Shown here: in pieces, positions 1 through 64,000 of the stretch
Layout of the letters: every line of letters starts with the position of its first letter
Numbering within the stretch: position 1 is the stretch's first letter
From: Octopus vulgaris
Lineage: Eukaryota
Direction of reading: 5' to 3'
NCBI GenBank assembly: GCA_951406725.2
Contig: OX597814.1
Location: 158,286,001-158,350,000, forward strand
DNA: 64,000 nucleotides
Translations under genes and position numbers: made by a program
The notes under the pieces: model-generated
The model's database searches: none
Told to the model about the DNA's origin: nothing
The model's input: the letters and a program-made list of their open reading frames with translations, nothing else

Positions 1-1615
1 TATTTATTCCACACCAAGTGGCCTAGTGCTTCGAGAAACCTGGATTATTATAATATTTTATAACATATTATAATATTTTTACAAAATAAATATAAGAGAG
101 TGGTCACTATATTGCTCACTCTAGCACCAGTTAATCCAAAAGGTTTCAACCACGAAAATACATGCTTACCATGAAAGTCAGTACGATTGTTAGCTCACAC
201 GGACAGGGCAAATAAAAAATAACAAAAATACAGATTATTTTGGGACAATTGTTTCGCTATTAATGAATTAAATGTAATTTTACTTACAAAAAAAAATCCA
301 TTTGTAGCTCGTCAGCCAAGACTATCTGGATGAAATCCACTCAATCACACGCCAGATTTTACCATAACGATAAATACGCGTGTGGTTCAATTGATTACAT
401 CCGACGTTATAATTCAAATGCCCCAACCAACAGCGCGCCAAACTCTCACGGAAAACAAATACAGCATTTAGAAATAAATGCAGCATAATTATAATTAATT
501 AATAAGGGTGAGAGAATTAGATACTAATTTAATAGTATATTTATTCCACACCAAGTGGCCTAGTGCTTCGAGAAACCTGGATTATTATATTTTATAACAT
601 ATTATAATATTTTTACAAAATAAATATAAGAGAGTGGTCACTATATTGCTCACTCTAGCACCAGTTAATCCAAAAGGTTTCAACCACGAAAATACATGCT
701 TACCATGAAAGTCAGTACGATTGTTAGCTCACACGGACAGGGCAAATAAAAAATAACAAAAATACAGATTATTTTGGGACAATTGTTTCGCTATTAATGA
801 ATTAAATGTAATTTTACTTAAAAAAAAAATCCATTTGTAGCTCGTCAGCCAAGACTATCTGGATGAAATCCACTCAATCACACGCCAGATTTTACCATAA
901 CGATAAATACGCGTGTGGTTCAATTGATTACATCCGACGTTATAATTCAAATGCCCCAACCAACAGCGCGCCAAACTCTCACGGAAAACAAATACAGCAT
1001 TTAGAAATAAATGCAGCATAATTATAATGAATTAATAAGGGTGAGAGAATTAGATACTAATTTAATAGTATATTTATTCCACACCAAGTGGCCTAGTGCT
1101 TCGAGAAACCTGGATTATTATAATATTTTATAACATATTATAATATTTTTACAAAATAAATATAAGAGAGTGGTCACTATATTGCTCACTCTAGCACCAG
1201 TTAATCCAAAAGGTTTCAACCACGAAAATACATGCTTACCATGAAAGTCAGTACGATTGTTAGCTCACACGGACAGGGCAAATAAAAAATAACAAAAATA
1301 CAGATTATTTTGGGACAATTGTTTCGCTATTAATGAATTAAATGTAATTTTACTTACAAAAAAAAATCCATTTGTAGCTCGTCAGCCAAGACTATCTGGA
1401 TGAAATCCACTCAATCACACGCCAGATTTTACCATAACGATAAATACGCGTGTGGTTCAATTGATTACATCCGACGTTATAATTCAAATGCCCCAACCAA
1501 CAGCGCGCCAAACTCTCACGGAAAACAAATACAGCATTTAGAAATAAATGCAGCATAATTATAATTAATTAATAAGGGTGAGAGAATTAGATACTAATTT
1601 AATAGTATATTTATT
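1..1615 (-). repeat. Tandem array, 3 copies of a ~537-bp hammerhead-containing monomer (inverted arm; runs off the window start)
   Basis: TATTTATTCCACACCAAG recurs at 1, 538 and 1071, and begins again at 1608. The sequence is the reverse complement of the 1618-8213 monomers. Confidence 0.97.
231..328 (-). ncRNA. Type I hammerhead ribozyme (representative of 3 - strand copies; cores begin at 315, 848, 1385)
   Basis: Exact reverse complement of the 2059-2156 motif. Confidence 0.9.
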
Positions 1616-1617
1616 TT

Positions 1618-4600
1618 TGTATTTTTGTTATTTTTTATTTGCCCTGTCCGTGTGAGCTAACAATCGTACTGACTTTCATGGTAAGCATGTATTTTCGTGG
1701 TTGAAACCTTTTGGATTAACTGGTGCTAGAGTGAGCAATATAGTGACCACTCTCTTATATTTATTTTGTAAAAATATTATAATATGTTATAAAATATTAT
1801 AATAATCCAGGTTTCTCGAAGCACTAGGCCACTTGGTGTGGAATAAATATACTATTAAATTAGTATCTAATTCTCTCACCCTTATTAATTAATTATAATT
1901 ATGCTGCATTTATTTCTAAATGCTGTATTTGTTTTCCGTGAGAGTTTGGCGCGCTGTTGGTTGGGGCATTTGAATTATAACGTCGGATGTAATCAATTGA
2001 ACCACACGCGTATTTATCGTTATGGTAAAATCTGGCGTGTGATTGAGTGGATTTCATCCAGATAGTCTTGGCTGACGAGCTACAAATGGATTTTTTTTTG
2101 TAAGTAAAATTACATTTAATTCATTAATAGCGAAACAATTGTCCCAAAATAATCTGTATTTTTGTTATTTTTTATTTGCCCTGTCCGTGTGAGCTAACAA
2201 TCGTACTGACTTTCATGGTAAGCATGTATTTTCGTGGTTGAAACCTTTTGGATTAACTGGTGCTAGAGTGAGCAATATAGTGACCACTCTCTTATATTTA
2301 TTTTGTAAAAATATTATAATATGTTATAAAATATTATAATAATCCAGGTTTCTCGAAGCACTAGGCCACTTGGTGTGGAATAAATATACTATTAAATTAG
2401 TATCTAATTCTCTCACCCTTATTAATTAATTATAATTATGCTGCATTTATTTCTAAATGCTGTATTTGTTTTCCGTGTGAGTTTGGCGCGCTGTTGGTTG
2501 GGGCATTTGAATTATAACGTCGGATGTAATCAATTGAACCACACGCGTATTTATCGTTATGGTAAAATCTGGCGTGTGATTGAGTGGATTTCATCCAGAT
2601 AGTCTTGGCTGACGAGCTACAAATGGATTTTTTTTTGTAAGTAAAATTACATTTAATTCATTAATAGCGAAACAATTGTCCCAAAATAATCTGTATTTTT
2701 GTTATTTTTTATTTGCCCTGTCCGTGTGAGCTAACAATCGTACTGACTTTCATGGTAAGCATGTATTTTCGTGGTTGAAAACTTTTGGATTAACTGGTGC
2801 TAGAGTGAGCAATATAGTGACCACTCTCTTATATTTATTTTGTAAAAATATTATAATATGTTATAAAATATTATAATAATCCAGGTTTCTCGAAGCACTA
2901 GGCCACTTGGTGTGGAATAAATATACTATTAAATTAGTATCTAATTCTCTCACCCTTATTAATTCATTATAATTATGCTGCATTTATTTCTAAATGCTGT
3001 ATTTGTTTTCCGTGAGAGTTTGGCGCGCTGTTGGTTGGGGCATTTGAATTATAACGTCGGATGTAATCAATTGAACCACACGCGTATTTATCGTTATGGT
3101 AAAATCTGGCGTGTGATTGAGTGGATTTCATCCAGATAGTCTTGGCTGACGAGCTACAAATGGATTTTTTTTTGTAAGTAAAATTACATTTAATTCATTA
3201 ATAGCGAAACAATTGTCCCAAAATAATCTGTATTTTTGTTATTTTTTATTTGCCCTGTCCGTGTGAGCTAACAATCGTACTGACTTTCATGGTAAGCATG
3301 TATTTTCGTGGTTGAAACCTTTTGGATTAACTGGTGCTAGAGTGAGCAATATAGTGACCACTCTCTTATATTTATTTTGTAAAAATATTATAATATGTTA
3401 TAAAATATTATAATAATCCAGGTTTCTCGAAGCACTAGGCCACTTGGTGTGGAATAAATATACTATTAAATTAGTATCTAATTCTCTCACCCTTATTAAT
3501 TAATTATAATTATGCTGCATTTATTTCTAAATGCTGTATTTGTTTTCCGTGTGAGTTTGGCGCGCTGTTGGTTGGGGCATTTGAATTATAACGTCGGATG
3601 TAATCAATTGAACCACACGCGTATTTATCGTTATGGTAAAATCTGGCGTGTGATTGAGTGGATTTCATCCAGATAGTCTTGGCTGACGAGCTACAAATGG
3701 ATTTTTTTTTTGTAAGTAAAATTACATTTAATTCATTAATAGCGAAACAATTGTCCCAAAATAATCTGTATTTTTGTTATTTTTTATTTGCCCTGTCCGT
3801 GTGAGCTAACAATCGTACTGACTTTCATGGTAAGCATGTATTTTCGTGGTTGAAACCTTTTGGATTAACTGGTGCTAGAGTGAGCAATATAGTGACCACT
3901 CTCTTATATTTATTTTGTAAAAATATTATAATATGTTATAAAATATTATAATAATCCAGGTTTCTCGAAGCACTAGGCCACTTGGTGTGGAATAAATATA
4001 CTATTAAATTAGTATCTAATTCTCTCACCCTTATTAATTAATTATAATTATGCTGCATTTATTTCTAAATGCTGTATTTGTTTTCCGTGAGAGTTTGGCG
4101 CGCTGTTGGTTGGGGCATTTGAATTATAACGTCGGATGTAATCAATTGAACCACACGCGTATTTATCGTTATGGTAAAATCTGGCGTGTGATTGAGTGGA
4201 TTTCATCCAGATAGTCTTGGCTGACGAGCTACAAATGGATTTTTTTTTGTAAGTAAAATTACATTTAATTCATTAATAGCGAAACAATTGTCCCAAAATA
4301 ATCTGTATTTTTGTTATTTTTTATTTGCCCTGTCCGTGTGAGCTAACAATCGTACTGACTTTCATGGTAAGCATGTATTTTCGTGGTTGAAACCTTTTGG
4401 ATTAACTGGTGCTAGAGTGAGCAATATAGTGACCACTCTCTTATATTTATTTTGTAAAAATATTATAATATGTTATAAAATATTGTAATAATCCAGGTTT
4501 CTCGAAGCACTAGGCCACTTGGTGTGGAATAAATATACTATTAAATTAGTATCTAATTCTCTCACCCTTATTAATTAATTATAATTATGCTGCATTTATT

Positions 4601-7600
4601 TCTAAATGCTGTATTTGTTTTCCGTGAGAGTTTGGCGCGCTGTTGGTTGGGGCATTTGAATTATAACGTCGGATGTAATCAATTGAACCACACGCGTATT
4701 TATCGTTATGGTAAAATCTGGCGTGTGATTGAGTGGATTTCATCCAGATAGTCTTGGCTGACGAGCTACAAATGGATTTTTTTTTGTAAGTAAAATTACA
4801 TTTAATTCATTAATAGCGAAACAATTGTCCCAAAATAATCTGTATTTTTGTTATTTTTTATTTGCCCTGTCCGTGTGAGCTAACAATCGTACTGACTTTC
4901 ATGGTAAGCATGTATTTTCGTGGTTGAAACCTTTTGGATTAACTGGTGCTAGAGTGAGCAATATAGTGACCACTCTCTTATATTTATTTTGTAAAAATAT
5001 TATAATATGTTATAAAATATTATAATAATCCAGGTTTCTCGAAGCACTAGGCCACTTGGTGTGGAATAAATATACTATTAAATTAGTATCTAATTCTCTC
5101 ACCCTTATTAATTCATTATAATTATGCTGCATTTATTTCTAAATGCTGTATTTGTTTTCCGTGAGAGTTTGGCGCGCTGTTGGTTGGGGCATTTGAATTA
5201 TAACGTCGGATGTAATCAATTGAACCACACGCGTATTTATCGTTATGGTAAAATCTGGCGTGTGATTGAGTGGATTTCATCCAGATAGTCTTGGCTGACG
5301 AGCTACAAATGGATTTTTTTTTTGTAAGTAAAATTACATTTAATTCATTAATAGCGAAACAATTGTCCCAAAATAATCTGTATTTTTGTTATTTTTTATT
5401 TGCCCTGTCCGTGTGAGCTAACAATCGTACTGACTTTCATGGTAAGCATGTATTTTCGTGGTTGAAACCTTTTGGATTAACTGGTGCTAGAGTGAGCAAT
5501 ATAGTGACCACTCTCTTATATTTATTTTGTAAAAATATTATAATATGTTATAAAATATTATAATAATCCAGGTTTCTCGAAGCACTAGGCCACTTGGTGT
5601 GGAATAAATATACTATTAAATTAGTATCTAATTCTCTCACCCTTATTAATTAATTATAATTATGCTGCATTTATTTCTAAATGCTGTATTTGTTTTCCGT
5701 GTGAGTTTGGCGCGCTGTTGGTTGGGGCATTTGAATTATAACGTCGGATGTAATCAATTGAACCACACGCGTATTTATCGTTATGGTAAAATCTGGCGTG
5801 TGATTGAGTGGATTTCATCCAGATAGTCTTGGCTGACGAGCTACAAATGGATTTTTTTTTTGTAAGTAAAATTACATTTAATTCATTAATAGCGAAACAA
5901 TTGTCCCAAAATAATCTGTATTTTTGTTATTTTTTATTTGCCCTGTCCGTGTGAGCTAACAATCGTACTGACTTTCATGGTAAGCATGTATTTTCGTGGT
6001 TGAAACCTTTTGGATTAACTGGTGCTAGAGTGAGCAATATAGTGACCACTCTCTTATATTTATTTTGTAAAAATATTATATGTTATAAAATATTATAATA
6101 ATCCAGGTTTCTCGAAGCACTAGGCCACTTGGTGTGGAATAAATATACTATTAAATTAGTATCTAATTCTCTCACCCTTATTAATTAATTATAATTATGC
6201 TGCATTTATTTCTAAATGCTGTATTTGTTTTCCGTGAGAGTTTGGCGCGCTGTTGGTTGGGGCATTTGAATTATAACGTCGGATGTAATCAATTGAACCA
6301 CACGCGTATTTATCGTTATGGTAAAATCTGGCGTGTGATTGAGTGGATTTCATCCAGATAGTCTTGGCTGACGAGCTACAAATGGATTTTTTTTTGTAAG
6401 TAAAATTACATTTAATTCATTAATAGCGAAACAATTGTCCCAAAATAATCTGTATTTTTGTTATTTTTTATTTGCCCTGTCCGTGTGAGCTAACAATCGT
6501 ACTGACTTTCATGGTAAGCATGTATTTTCGTGGTTGAAACCTTTTGGATTAACTGGTGCTAGAGTGAGCAATATAGTGACCACTCTCTTATATTTATTTT
6601 GTAAAAATATTATAATATGTTATAAAATATTGTAATAATCCAGGTTTCTCGAAGCACTAGGCCACTTGGTGTGGAATAAATATACTATTAAATTAGTATC
6701 TAATTCTCTCACCCTTATTAATTAATTATAATTATGCTGCATTTATTTCTAAATGCTGTATTTGTTTTCCGTGAGAGTTTGGCGCGCTGTTGGTTGGGGC
6801 ATTTGAATTATAACGTCGGATGTAATCAATTGAACCACACGCGTATTTATCGTTATGGTAAAATCTGGCGTGTGATTGAGTGGATTTCATCCAGATAGTC
6901 TTGGCTGACGAGCTACAAATGGATTTTTTTTTTGTAAGTAAAATTACATTTAATTCATTAATAGCGAAACAATTGTCCCAAAATAATCTGTATTTTTGTT
7001 ATTTTTTATTTGCCCTGTCCGTGTGAGCTAACAATCGTACTGACTTTCATGGTAAGCATGCATTTTCGTGGTTGAAACCTTTTGGATTAACTGGTGCTAG
7101 AGTGAGCAATATAGTGACCACTCTCTTATATTTATTTTGTAAAAATATTATAATATGTTATAAAATATTATAATAATCCAGGTTTCTCGAAGCACTAGGC
7201 CACTTGGTGTGGAATAAATATACTATTAAATTAGTATCTAATTCTCTCACCCTTATTAATTAATTATAATTATGCTGCATTTATTTCTAAATGCTGTATT
7301 TGTTTTCCGTGAGAGTTTGGCGCGCTGTTGGTTGGTGCATTTGAATTATAACGTCGGATGTAATCAATTGAACCACACGCGTATTTATCGTCATAGTAAA
7401 ATCTGGCGTGTGATTGAGTGGATTTCATCCAGATAGTCTTGGCTGACGAGCTACAAATGGATTTTTTTTTGTAAGTAAAATTACATTTAATTCATTAATA
7501 GCGAAACAATTGTCCCAAAATAATCTGTATTTTTGTTATTTTTTATTTGCCCTGTCCGTGTGAGCTAACAATCGTACTGACTTTCATGGTAAGCATGTAT

Positions 7601-8213
7601 TTTCGTGGTTGAAACCTTTTGGATTAACTGGTGCTAGAGTGAGCAATATAGTGACCACTCTCTTATATTTATTTTGTAAAAATATTATAATATGTTATAA
7701 AATATTGTAATAATCCAGGTTTCTCGAAGCACTAGGCCACTTGGTGTGGAATAAATATACTATTAAATTAGTATCTAATTCTCTCACCCTTATTAATTAA
7801 TTATAATTATGCTGCATTTATTTCTAAATGCTGTATTTGTTTTCCGTGAGAGTTTGGCGCGCTGTTGGTTGGGGCATTTGAATTATAACGTCGGATGTAA
7901 TCAATTGAACCACACGCGTATTTATCGTTATGGTAAAATCTGGCGTGTGATTGAGTGGATTTCATCCAGATAGTCTTGGCTGACGAGCTACAAATGGATT
8001 TTTTTTTTTGTAAGTAAAATTACATTTAATTCATTAATAGCGAAACAATTGTCCCAAAATAATCTGTATTTTTGTTATTTTTTATTTGCCCTGTCCGTGT
8101 GAGCTAACAATCGTACTGACTTTCATGGTAAGCATGTATTTTCGTGGTTGAAACCTTTTGGATTAACTGGTGCTAGAGTGAGCAATATAGTGACCACTCT
8201 CTTATATTTATTT
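1618..8213 (+). repeat. Tandem array, ~12.3 copies of the ~537-bp monomer (retrozyme-like satellite)
   Basis: CTGACGAG recurs at 2072, 2609, 3146, 3683, 4221, 4758, 5295, 5833, 6368, 6905, 7443 and 7980. Copies differ by only a few SNPs or indels. The array ends in (TA)n at ~8214. Confidence 0.97.
2059..2156 (+). ncRNA. Type I hammerhead ribozyme (representative of 12 + strand copies; last cleavage site at 8053)
   Basis: Stem I CAGAT..TTGG/CCAA..ATCTG; core CTGACGA (2072-2078); stem II GCTA..TAGC; GAAA; minimal palindromic stem III AC-AATT-GT; GUC triplet at 2141-2143. Confidence 0.9.
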
Positions 8214-8215
8214 TA

Positions 8216-8261
<46 letters not shown>

Positions 8262-14565: not shown

Positions 14566-15075
14566 CGGAATAGAACGTACCAAAGCTATAGATATACAAA
14601 AACTACGATAAACGAAAATCACACCAGATACATTCAATACTCTAACCTTTATTAAACATACAACCCAAGAAACACAGAGGTTTACTATATTGTCCACCAG
14701 AACATCTCACTACTAAAACAAGACCCAAGAATGTAAAAAGCATTCAAAATACACAAAATAATCAAAAGTAAGAGGCAATGAAAGTCACTCTAAAAATTCC
14801 TCACAGGTGCTAAATTACCTTCCACAATTCCTACACCAACAGTCAAAAAGTGTGGCCGCCCCAATTGCTGGATTTGCATCAACCTTATTGAAGACATAAC
14901 ATACAAATTCAAACCAGGACAGACTTTTACCGTAAAAATTAACTTCACATGTTCTTCGAAGAATTTAATATACGCTATCAAATGTCAAGGATGTAATGAA
15001 GATTACATAAGTCAAAGCTTACTCTAAGAAATAGACTGACAAGTTATTGACAACAAATACGAGACTCCCATATCT
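14563..15075 (+). pseudogene. Penelope-like element fragment: linker + GIY-YIG endonuclease (frameshifted)
   Basis: From 14851 translates CGRPNCWICINLIE..FTCSSKNLIYAIKCQGCNEDYISQS (CxxxxCxxC, LIY...YI). Upstream motifs GIERTKAID and IIKSKRQ. Confidence 0.85.
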
Positions 15076-25464: not shown

Positions 25465-26772
25465 CCGATGCTGAGGATCATCAAGTCTTTCCATGATGAC
25501 ATGCAAGGCACCATACAGCACAACGGTTCAACATCAGCCGCCTTCCAAATAAAAAACGGGGTAAAGCAAGGCTGTGTCCTCGCTCCTACATTGTTTGGCA
25601 TCTTCTTCTCACTCTTACTTTCACATGCCTTTCAGATGGAGTGTTTCTGCACAGTAGAAGTGACGGGAAACTGTTCAATCTCTCGCGTCTGCGTGCCAAG
25701 ACCAAAATCAGAAGGGTCCTGATCAAGGAGATGTTATTTGCTGATGATGCCGCTCTGGTAACACACACAGAAGAAGCCCTCCAAAGGCTCATTAACTGTT
25801 TTGAGCAAGCATGTAACGACTTTGGCTTAGCTATCAGCCTTAAGAAGACCAACATCATGGGCCAGGCTACATCGGACATCCCAAACATACACATTGGAGA
25901 CCACAGATTACCAAAGGTGGAGAAGTTTACCTATCTGGGCTCTACCGTCACCCACAACCTATCCCTTGACGCTGAGCTCAATATACGCATTGGCAAGGCA
26001 GCTGCTGCGATGGCCCAACTCTCCAAACGGGCTTGGGACAACAATAAGCTGACCAAGACCACGAAAATGAAGATCTACCAGGCATGTGTACTCAGCACTC
26101 TACTGTATGGAAGCGAGACCTGGACGCTATACACACGCCAAGAGCGTCGCCTAAACATCTTTCACCTGCGCTGCCTCCGAAAAATCCTCCGCATCAAATG
26201 GCAGAATCATATCCCCAACAAAGATGTCCTCAGGCAAGCAGGAATACCAAGCATGTTTGCACTCCTCACCCAAAGACGTATGAGATGGCTTCGGCATGTT
26301 AGCCGTATGAAAGATGGCAGAATCCCCAAGGACATACTCTACGGAGAGCTTGCTAGGGGTACTAGGTCTGTGGGTAGACCGATCTTACGTTACAGGGATG
26401 TTTGCAAAAGGGATATGAAGGCCTGCAACATCAATATTAGCGGTTGGGAGGCAGTTGCCGGCAACCGTGGAGAATGGCGACGTACAGTAAAAGAGGGAAT
26501 ACAAAAGAGTGACAGAGAGAGAGAGGAGAAATGGAAAGAAAGGAAGAGACGTAAACAAGAGACTATGGCACTACAACCAGCCAGGAACAGTCTTCGCTAC
26601 ATTTGCGGTACCTGCCAGAGGGAGTGTTTGTCCAGGATAGGACTACACAGCCACAGCAGGAAATGTATCAGGACATGAAATATAAAAGCCGGACTAGACT
26701 ATAAAAAAAAAAAAAAAAAAGCGCAACTCCATTGTCTCCCGAGACAGAAAGGATGCCAATACAATACAATAC
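25464..26772 (+). mobile_element. RTE-clade LINE, 5' truncated, young (ORF 25641-26678, 345 aa)
   Basis: GVKQGCVLAPTLF, LFADDAAL, FTYLGS, TLLYGSETW, DGRIPKDILYGEL and C-terminal CGTC..HSHSRKC. 3' hairpin TGTCTCCCGAGACA and (ACAAT)n tail. Confidence 0.95.
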
Positions 26773-62134: not shown

Positions 62135-63011
62135 AACCCATCAATGGTTAAAGGCCTCTGGCTTAAAATCTGAAACAGAAGGGTCTATCATAGTAGCTCG
62201 AGATCAATGCCTACATATAAGGAACTACCAGGCCAACATATTAAAGAACGGCAGTAGCCCAACATGTCGTGTATGTCAACAACAAAATCAAACCATTGAT
62301 CATGTTGTCTCCAAGTGCAGTCTTCTTGCGCCTACAGAGTATCTCAACAGGCACAATATAATCACAGGGTAATTTGCAAAAGCCTAGACTTGCTTCATGA
62401 TAAAAACTGGTGGGAACATAAACCACCCCCAGTGCTTCAAAATGATTACATCTCACTCGTCTGGAACTTCACCATTCAAACTGATAGAAAGATAGACGCG
62501 AATAGGCCAAACATCATATTGAAGACTTCAGATAATAATCATGCCTCCTCATTGATATGACTGTCCCAATCGATATAAACTTATCTGTCAAGACCTACCA
62601 AAAACTGAGCAAATATAAAGATCTTGAAATAGAAATCAGCAAAATGTGGAACCTGAAGATTAAAACAATACCTGTTGTCAAAGGTGCCCTTGAGAATGAT
62701 AGCAAAAGGGGCTTATTGCTACCTAGCTCAGATACCAGGAAACCCCAAAATGGTAGAAATTCAAAAGATAGTGCTCATGGGAACTGCCCATATCCTACGC
62801 AAAATATTCTCTATGTAATCTCAAGTTTTAAAACAAACATAATTTTCTTACGGTTTCTTAAACATTCTCTAGAACAACTCTATGTACAAAACCAAATATA
62901 TGCCACCCTAGCCATAACACCAACATGAAATTCCAACTTGTTGTCTCTTGAGGTCTCTGGGTGAGACTTAGAGCCAACTCGTACAAATGTAAAGCAAAAA
63001 TCAAACATAAA

Positions 63012-63012
<1 letters not shown>
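62135..63012 (+). mobile_element. R4/Dong-type LINE 3' fragment
   Basis: GLKSETEG, CRVCQQQNQTIDHVVSKC, NRPNIILK, KLSKYKDLEIE; (TAA)n tail. Confidence 0.9.
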
Positions 63013-63055
<43 letters not shown>

Positions 63056-63056
<1 letters not shown>

Positions 63057-64000
63057 GAAAAATAAGGAAACTGTTGACAATGCATAGAATGCACCACCCT
63101 AGGGCAGATACAGAACGACTCTATCTGCCAAGAAAAGAGGGAGGCCGTGGTCTTTTGCAACTGGCAATAACAATGAAGATTGCTACAATTGGCCTAGACA
63201 CCTACCTGAAAAACTCTGAGGACTGGATGTTAAAACTTGTCTCAAAACATGAAAACAAGAAAGCATCATACTCAGTCACAAAACAGGCAAAGGAATATCT
63301 AAGTGAATTCCGAATACAACCAATTTCGGAATTAGAGATAGACATACAAGAAACAAGCACAGAAAAAGCTAGGCGCATGAAAACCCGTGCCAAAACTGCG
63401 GCCTTAGATATTCTGAATAATAAATGGCAAGAAAAACCTCTCTATGGCAAATACCCAAAGAGAGCGAATAATGCAGATATCGACAAAGCCCTGACCCATC
63501 AATGGCTAATGGCCTCTGGCTTAAAATCTGAAACAGAGGGGTTTATCATAGCAGCTCAAGATCAATGCCTACCAACAAGAAACTACCAGGCCAACATATT
63601 AAAGATCAGAAGCAGTCCAACGTGTCGTGTATGCAAGCAACAAAATGAAACCATTGACCATGTTGTCTCCAAGTGCAGTCTTCTAGCGCCTACAGAGTAT
63701 CTCAACAGGCACGATAGAGCTGCACAATATATTCACTGGGTAATCTGTAAAAACCTGGATTTGCCCCATGAAAAAAACTGGTGGGAACACAAACCACCCC
63801 CAGTGCTTGAAAATGACCACATCTCACTCCTCTGGAACTTCACCATTCAAACTGACAGGAAGATAGATGCAAATAGGCCAGACATCATATTGAAAGACTT
63901 CAAACAAAGAACATGCCTCCTCATTGATATGACTGTCCCAATCGATATAAACGTATCTGTCAGGACCTACCAAAAACTGAGCAAATATAAAGATCTTGAA
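63056..64000 (+). mobile_element. R4/Dong-type LINE, 5' truncated, with an uninterrupted 315-codon frame running off the window
   Basis: RKIRKLLTMHRMHHPRADTERLYLPRKEGGRGL..CRVCKQQNETIDHVVSKC..RHD..NRPDIILKD..LIDMTVP..KLSKYKDLE with no stop. Absent from the ORF track, probably because it has no stop in the window. Confidence 0.9.

Follow-up and report, generated by a model that had tools for sequence, protein, structure and literature searches.

The left end of a 64,000-nucleotide stretch of the 2.8-Gb Octopus vulgaris genome (contig OX597814.1, positions 158,286,001-158,350,000; hereafter the window) carries a tandem repeat in which each unit contains a hammerhead ribozyme. The initial annotation described this repeat as an 8-kb array at 1..8213 and labeled it a retrozyme-like satellite. 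An array does lie at these positions, but it is part of a single 8.8-kb insertion (158,285,416-158,294,214) that reaches 585 bp further left, where a 16th hammerhead core is located, and that consists of two diverging arms with (TA)n on either side. Of the 15 cores in the window, three are on the minus strand (1-1615); the other 12 belong to the plus strand (1618-8214). The left arm, traced from the core map and the upstream DNA, occupies 1..1615 within the window and totals approximately 4.1 units. Its inner end is at monomer position 236, its cores in the window are at 1385-1314, 848-778, and 315-244 (244..1385, minus strand), and its outer end, which we call the long end, is approximately +290 after the predicted cut site, in the (TA)n 585 bp left of the window. 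The right arm (1618..8214, plus strand) has approximately 12.3 units, an inner end at monomer position 12, and an outer short end at approximately +161, where it meets the (TA)n of the right flank (8215..8254). The arms join 5'-to-5' at 1612..1620, with 2 bp separating the aligned arms. A static satellite would have a single orientation and unconstrained ends; we found an inversion at 1615/1618 and fixed ends everywhere we mapped, and the structure is that of a two-armed insertion of the kind made by Penelope-like elements (PLEs).

The description of the ribozyme itself held up well. All 15 CUGACGA...GAAACAAUUGUC cores were recovered in the window, each with an unmutated core and with a spacing of 534-539 bp. 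The first plus-arm unit folds as a type I hammerhead with an extended stem I (2059..2156, core 2072-2143), and the remaining plus-arm cores end at 2680, 3217, 3755, 4292, 4829, 5367, 5905, 6439, 6977, 7514, and 8053. The predicted fold includes stem II GCUA/UAGC together with the AAUGGAUU/AAUUCAUU and UGUAA/UUACA pairings, as well as the palindromic mini stem III ACAAUUGU, with a predicted cut after C2143. The full type I topology appeared in 1 of 20,000 shuffled monomers, and the circular fold of the reference monomer (2144..2680, plus strand, 537 bp from cut to cut) has a z-score of -5.3 against 40 shuffles. Across 11 A- and B-type copies, 95.7% of the cells in the hammerhead stems are paired, with two compensated pairs in stem I; alignment A4 leaves out L104, L109, and L133. 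The search against Rfam that had been suggested as a check gave no hammerhead match at the gathering score or at E<=10, probably because stem II is long.

The monomer is non-coding, as had been reported: frames without a stop extend to at most 58 aa in the sense and 73 aa in the antisense direction. Its GC fraction is 0.31-0.33 (the limit for the class is <45%), and it is without a long terminal repeat (LTR). No open reading frame (ORF) with reverse transcriptase (RT) and GIY-YIG domains was found in the monomer, and no PLE ORF was attached to the arrays at 40 loci. Both fixed ends lie directly 3' of hairpins. In the reference copy, these are a hairpin at 2265..2290 (plus strand), directly 5' of the short end, and a predicted hairpin at 2372-2417, directly 5' of the long end; the latter falls within the stretch of approximately 130 nt that separates the two ends (2305..2433), which we call the tail.

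The genome-wide search for other arrays that had been proposed identified 832 exact matches to an 18-nt core motif, 416 per strand, with none for the control. We mapped 60 loci, which are dispersed over many chromosomes at 96-100% identity, in agreement with the earlier view that the repeat is a young retrozyme-like retroelement that carries a hammerhead and encodes no protein. The first set comprised the best 40 of 771 candidates. The second comprised 20 loci taken by position from the 26 clusters among the first 100 motif matches listed (four clusters were already in the first set and two were skipped). Two divergent arms were present at 27 of the 40 loci in the first set, the other 13 having a single arm, and 25 of these 27 had ends near +160 and +290 after the cut (the other two had an atypical end). 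All 14 two-armed loci among the 20 of the second set had one short and one long end. Pooled, 41 of 60 loci were two-armed and 39 of these 41 combined a short with a long end, while none had two like ends; the chance probability of finding short plus long in 25 of 25 is 3e-8. In the first set, where the median arm is approximately 1 kb, all 67 outer ends touched TA runs and the inner ends were scattered. Contigs from other sequencing runs also contained loose TA ends at both fixed positions, 2304 and 2434. The flank included a non-AT letter at 11 of the 39 loci with both ends recognised, and in five of these 11 an identical interrupted word stood beside both ends; such repeats are likely target duplications of roughly 8-15 bp. 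The loci thus display the two-armed architecture, the fixed ends near +160 and +290, the rule of one short and one long end, and the TA targets, along with target duplications in some cases and variants common to both arms. We conclude that the 537-bp repeat is a new family of animal non-LTR retrozymes.

The same anatomy recurs in two sister families (L091-L135 and L176-L195), both of which retain the hammerhead core and two-end insertions. Family B (506 bp) is approximately 70% identical to the 537-bp family and has inverted arms, ends near +160 and +264, and predicted hairpins at both ends, that of the short end being placed as in the 537-bp monomer. Its older subfamilies, at 82-95%, likewise retain the core, both ends, and the inverted arrangement of the arms. 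In family G (508 bp), the ends are found near +168 and +255. Short palindromic TA-flanked elements are also abundant (for example L058:2560-2800, L088:6400-6640, L133, L150, and L169); these carry the motif seen at the long ends of families A, B, and G, and some of them are without a hammerhead and resemble minimal two-armed insertions.

Sequence variation among units bears on the template that was copied. In the first set (131 units, 40 loci), the mean number of substitutions was 0.47 for units of the same arm, 1.04 for units in opposite arms, and 3.89 for units from separate loci; the second set, with 55 units from 16 loci, gave 1.39, 1.69, and 7.91, respectively. Nine locus-private alleles were fixed in all covering units, six of them across both arms, and a further 99 were unfixed, mostly in single units and in part reflecting end-alignment noise. 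Within the 10-11-unit arms of L014 and L036, the units are identical except for T-run length. Cut-site junctions were exact in 175 of 178 cases, with the scissile bond free of indels. This uniformity within loci, together with the exact junctions, favors one monomer-length template that was copied repeatedly.

Coding PLEs of the octopus genome, which we scored in 150 of 6,136 and 93 of 20,816 candidates, offer a direct comparison. A young Neptune/Nematis-like family (L071-L086, 16 loci, e.g., L074:989-6290) has RT and GIY-YIG domains with a CX4CxxC linker, two frames of 479 and 781 aa, and a pseudo-LTR (pLTR) of approximately 500 bp. Its hammerhead has the core variant UUGAUAA and would be cut after GUU. 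Both ends of the element are preceded by a repeated six-letter motif. Hydra-like families with RWK, DKT, and CxCX5C motifs form at least six groups (L136-L145, L156-L175), several with copies that are 97-99% identical, and have tails of approximately 65-155 nt, far above the published 30-40 bp. For one resident element, the best homologues include an Argonauta protein. These coding PLEs have hammerheads in their pLTRs and inverted arms, insert at TA targets, and show two ends, located at +66/+104 in the Neptune/Nematis-like family and at +37/+152, about +45/+111, and +61/+214 in Hydra-like ones. The footprint of the retrozyme is that of a PLE, since the ends of the coding PLEs, the traits listed by Craig et al. 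(PMC8557442), which include tandem, inverted, and tail structures and a TA bias, and the priming described by Frangieh et al. (2024; PMC11167929) all agree. In the latter study, a PLE protein nicked and extended both strands from two internal sites matching the genomic tail, and the start site did not differ between strands in vitro. Different PLE and retrozyme families are also piled into single TA runs (L083, L159-L162, L133), and TA tracts therefore appear to be shared landing sites.

We searched these PLEs for the partner that might mobilize the retrozyme. Among the 80 loci compared, neither the Neptune/Nematis-like family and six other GIY-YIG clusters nor Hydra-like family D, family F, and five Hydra clusters had detectable similarity to the monomer. 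Matches from nhmmer in L147, L159, and L160 were retrozyme-type copies in neighboring TA runs, and the PLE fragments adjoining B-type copies (L129, L130) were interpreted as co-insertions. The Hydra-like families are similar to the 537-bp retrozyme in tail length and in having a hammerhead with a long stem II. A comparison of the Hydra-1 long end with the long ends of families G, B, and A gave p-values of 0.004, 0.024, and 0.07, respectively, but, being post hoc among 66 tests, provides only a lead. A Hydra-clade PLE is the leading candidate for the partner enzyme, at about even odds.

With good though not full confidence, we interpret the element as a young non-coding retrozyme insertion with two fixed ends in (TA)n, made with a borrowed Penelope-like RT/endonuclease. 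Such an enzyme would nick both strands of the (TA)n target, and one cDNA would be primed per strand. The paired enzyme would begin reverse transcription internally, directly downstream (3') of each of two hairpins, and both cDNAs would halt at variable points before being joined 5'-to-5'. Taken as one claim, this internal priming by a paired enzyme with variable stops and 5'-to-5' joining is very probable. The template circle would arise by the predicted cutting of the hammerhead, which probably acts as a dimer held together by the palindromic stem III, followed by host ligation, and an RT that traveled round this monomeric circle repeatedly would produce multi-unit arms. We lean slightly toward the template usually having been one such monomeric circle, cut by the hammerhead, ligated by the host, and repeatedly copied. 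The long arms, including those at the window locus, were probably reshuffled afterwards at the DNA level. In the most specific version of this model, each insertion would be the fossil of one reaction. A PLE-type RT dimer would have worked on a single self-cut and ligated 537-nt circle, and its two subunits, priming from the two nicked strands at different fixed sites separated by 130 nt, would each have made as many as twelve turns of that circle. This version could equally well be right or wrong.

Several observations weigh against parts of this interpretation. The predicted active fold (-17.5 kcal/mol) is 5.6 kcal/mol higher than an alternative (-23.1 kcal/mol) with base pairing between the core and the cut site. 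All 170 cores at 40 loci are intact, but this does not exceed chance, which predicts 2.4 variants, and the covariation is weak, with 28-280 of 500 shuffles scoring as high. Ribozyme mutants inserted equally in the experiments of Frangieh et al. (2024; PMC11167929), where uncut RNA was the chief substrate. No similarity of the monomer to PLEs was detected in 40 GIY-YIG loci and 40 Hydra-like or other hammerhead-bearing loci. The window locus is a mosaic with a mean of 1.88 differences, private variants in each arm, and variants private to the locus at monomer positions 193/285/335 whose four-unit pattern occurs twice over in eight units at 2681..6977 (plus strand), so it is not the product of a single pass round a single circle. 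L200 resembles this mosaic and has a variant shared among scattered units. Finally, 8 of the 67 arms of the first set have their inner end close to the cut (p ~0.005 for that window of positions, 0.39 for any window), as do 3 of 35 arms of the second, a hint of some linear, cut templates.

This hint also fits a tentative and somewhat unlikely alternative, in which the same PLE-type double priming used a linear multimeric transcript, uncut or cut in part, of a homogeneous parent array and the ribozyme only trimmed this transcript or was a passenger; such copying would require no circle. Mosaic long arrays, the inner ends that adjoin the cut site, the insertion of PLEs in vitro without need of the ribozyme (PMC11167929), and the eight of nine Xenopus dimers that remained uncut (Li et al., 2026) are all in line with a linear template. 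Alleles that are private to a locus and fixed over all units and both arms, however, would demand a one-monomer bottleneck followed by multimerisation, and the 10-11-unit arms are uniform but for the T-run despite a median arm of approximately 1 kb. Alternatively, short PLE-type insertions with one or two units per arm may have come first and the long arms may have grown later in the manner of a minisatellite, through tandem expansion of the DNA together with gene conversion. We consider this improbable, even though local amplification is the preference of Li et al. (2026) and both the four-unit higher-order repeat in the window and the scattered variant of L200 are what it would leave behind. 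The long arms of L205, L014, and L036 have no substitutions among units in either arm, which suggests that they were long from birth, and because expansion leaves the ends unexplained it can serve only as an addition to the PLE-type model.

Two further explanations were given little weight. L1 twin priming is known to produce inverted 5' pieces and fragments of long interspersed nuclear elements (LINEs) are plentiful in the genome, so movement by a LINE through twin priming was considered, as was the joining of units by an RT that jumped from one cut linear monomer to another. Both are very unlikely: the 178 cut-site junctions are free of indels, a poly(A) tail is lacking, and twin priming would not yield two fixed internal outer ends. 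Long near-perfect repeats are hard to assemble, and the unit number and mosaic order given for the window locus are those of the assembly. That the palindromic array is itself an assembly artefact is nonetheless barely conceivable, since the same architecture occurs at 41 loci that differ in their flanks and variants and both fixed ends recur in contigs of other runs.

Contigs from the sequencing runs also contained a distinctive pattern of changes. In run X12 (organism B), A>G (59) and T>C (25) accounted for 84 of the 109 listed places, and in run X20 (organism B) A>G accounted for 27 of 40, with other changes at five or fewer; neither run is recorded as RNA. The corresponding count in the large run X15 was 8 of 24. 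One loose end from X12, compared by eye with 2109-2138, read 11 of 14 A as G over stem II and the GAAA core, and A-to-G was its sole type of change. These patterns are no more than suggestive of edited double-stranded transcripts of both strands, such as two-armed insertions would make. Possible adenosine-to-inosine hyper-editing that reached the GAAA of the catalytic core would silence the ribozyme. Edits fixed in the genome were rejected, as A>G made up 4 of 20 locus-fixed variants, without an excess. A 566-nt wrapped contig from X20 is equally compatible with a circle and a tandem, and neither it nor the high depth in run X2 was given any weight.

Elsewhere in the window, a fragment of a Neptune/Nematis-like PLE ORF at 14656-15018 (51% identical to P0001 residues 581-702) is TA-flanked and separate from the hammerhead array. 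Two open frames of 392 aa (25500-26678) and 330 aa (63011-64000) have an appearance that we take to be that of LINE RT fragments.

If the proposed reaction is correct, these insertions would provide genomic evidence that an animal reverse-transcribes a viroid-like RNA by rolling-circle, target-primed copying, and would reveal how PLE tails and inversions form. The re-entry of animal retrozymes into the genome has so far been only proposed (PMC7229834; Li et al., 2026), and the making of PLE tails and inversions is only partly understood (PMC11167929). The rule of one short and one long end gives exact start sites that can be tested (+160 and +290), a target, and a prediction of strand-specific sites, and the uniformity within loci makes the idea of a circular template testable.

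Newt satellite 2 and the Schistosoma Sm-alpha repeats are tandem type I hammerhead repeats, an organization that the 537-bp family shares. The class itself is known, and the novelty would lie in the insertion anatomy and in the insertion-site evidence, drawn from genomic sequence, for PLE copying from both target strands. Metazoan non-LTR retrozymes likewise consist of AT-rich monomers in tandem that encode no protein and contain a single type I hammerhead, and they are dispersed as dimers to multimers (Cervera and de la Pena, 2020; PMC7229834). Circles have been demonstrated for them, whereas here the release of 537-nt linear or circular RNA is predicted. The same authors proposed that a PLE RT copies circular RNA, and hammerheads of the salamander type are known to cleave as dimers by way of a short stem III (PMC7229834); the main text of that paper does not contain the words inverted, target site, or octopus. 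The monomer had been called unusually long, and it does exceed the approximately 170-400 nt of invertebrate retrozymes (PMC7229834). It nevertheless falls inside the 51-972 bp published for vertebrate ones (Li, Clavereau, and Pollet, 2026; bioRxiv 10.64898/2026.07.22.740005), and with sister families of 506 and 508 bp we no longer regard its size as a novelty. Those vertebrate retrozymes, of which one of nine Xenopus dimers was cut in vitro, are non-autonomous PLE derivatives and share with our family a PLE origin and co-occurrence with PLEs. Li et al. (2026) drew the link from pLTR homology and co-occurrence; ours comes from the insertion ends, and we found no pLTR homology. Tail, target site, octopus, and mollusc go unmentioned in the available text of their report. 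In a literature covering few subscription journals and excluding supplements, we found no cephalopod retrozymes or comparable analysis of ends. Poseidon of Anolis and the Hydra, Neptune, and Naiad PLEs also have partial tandems, an inverted 5'-truncated arm, a tail at one end, (TA)n targets, and a minimal palindromic hammerhead (PMC11167929, PMC8557442). The 537-bp family differs from them in being without an RT/GIY-YIG ORF, in its tail of approximately 130 nt compared to the 30-40 bp in print, and in having arms of up to 12 whole units.

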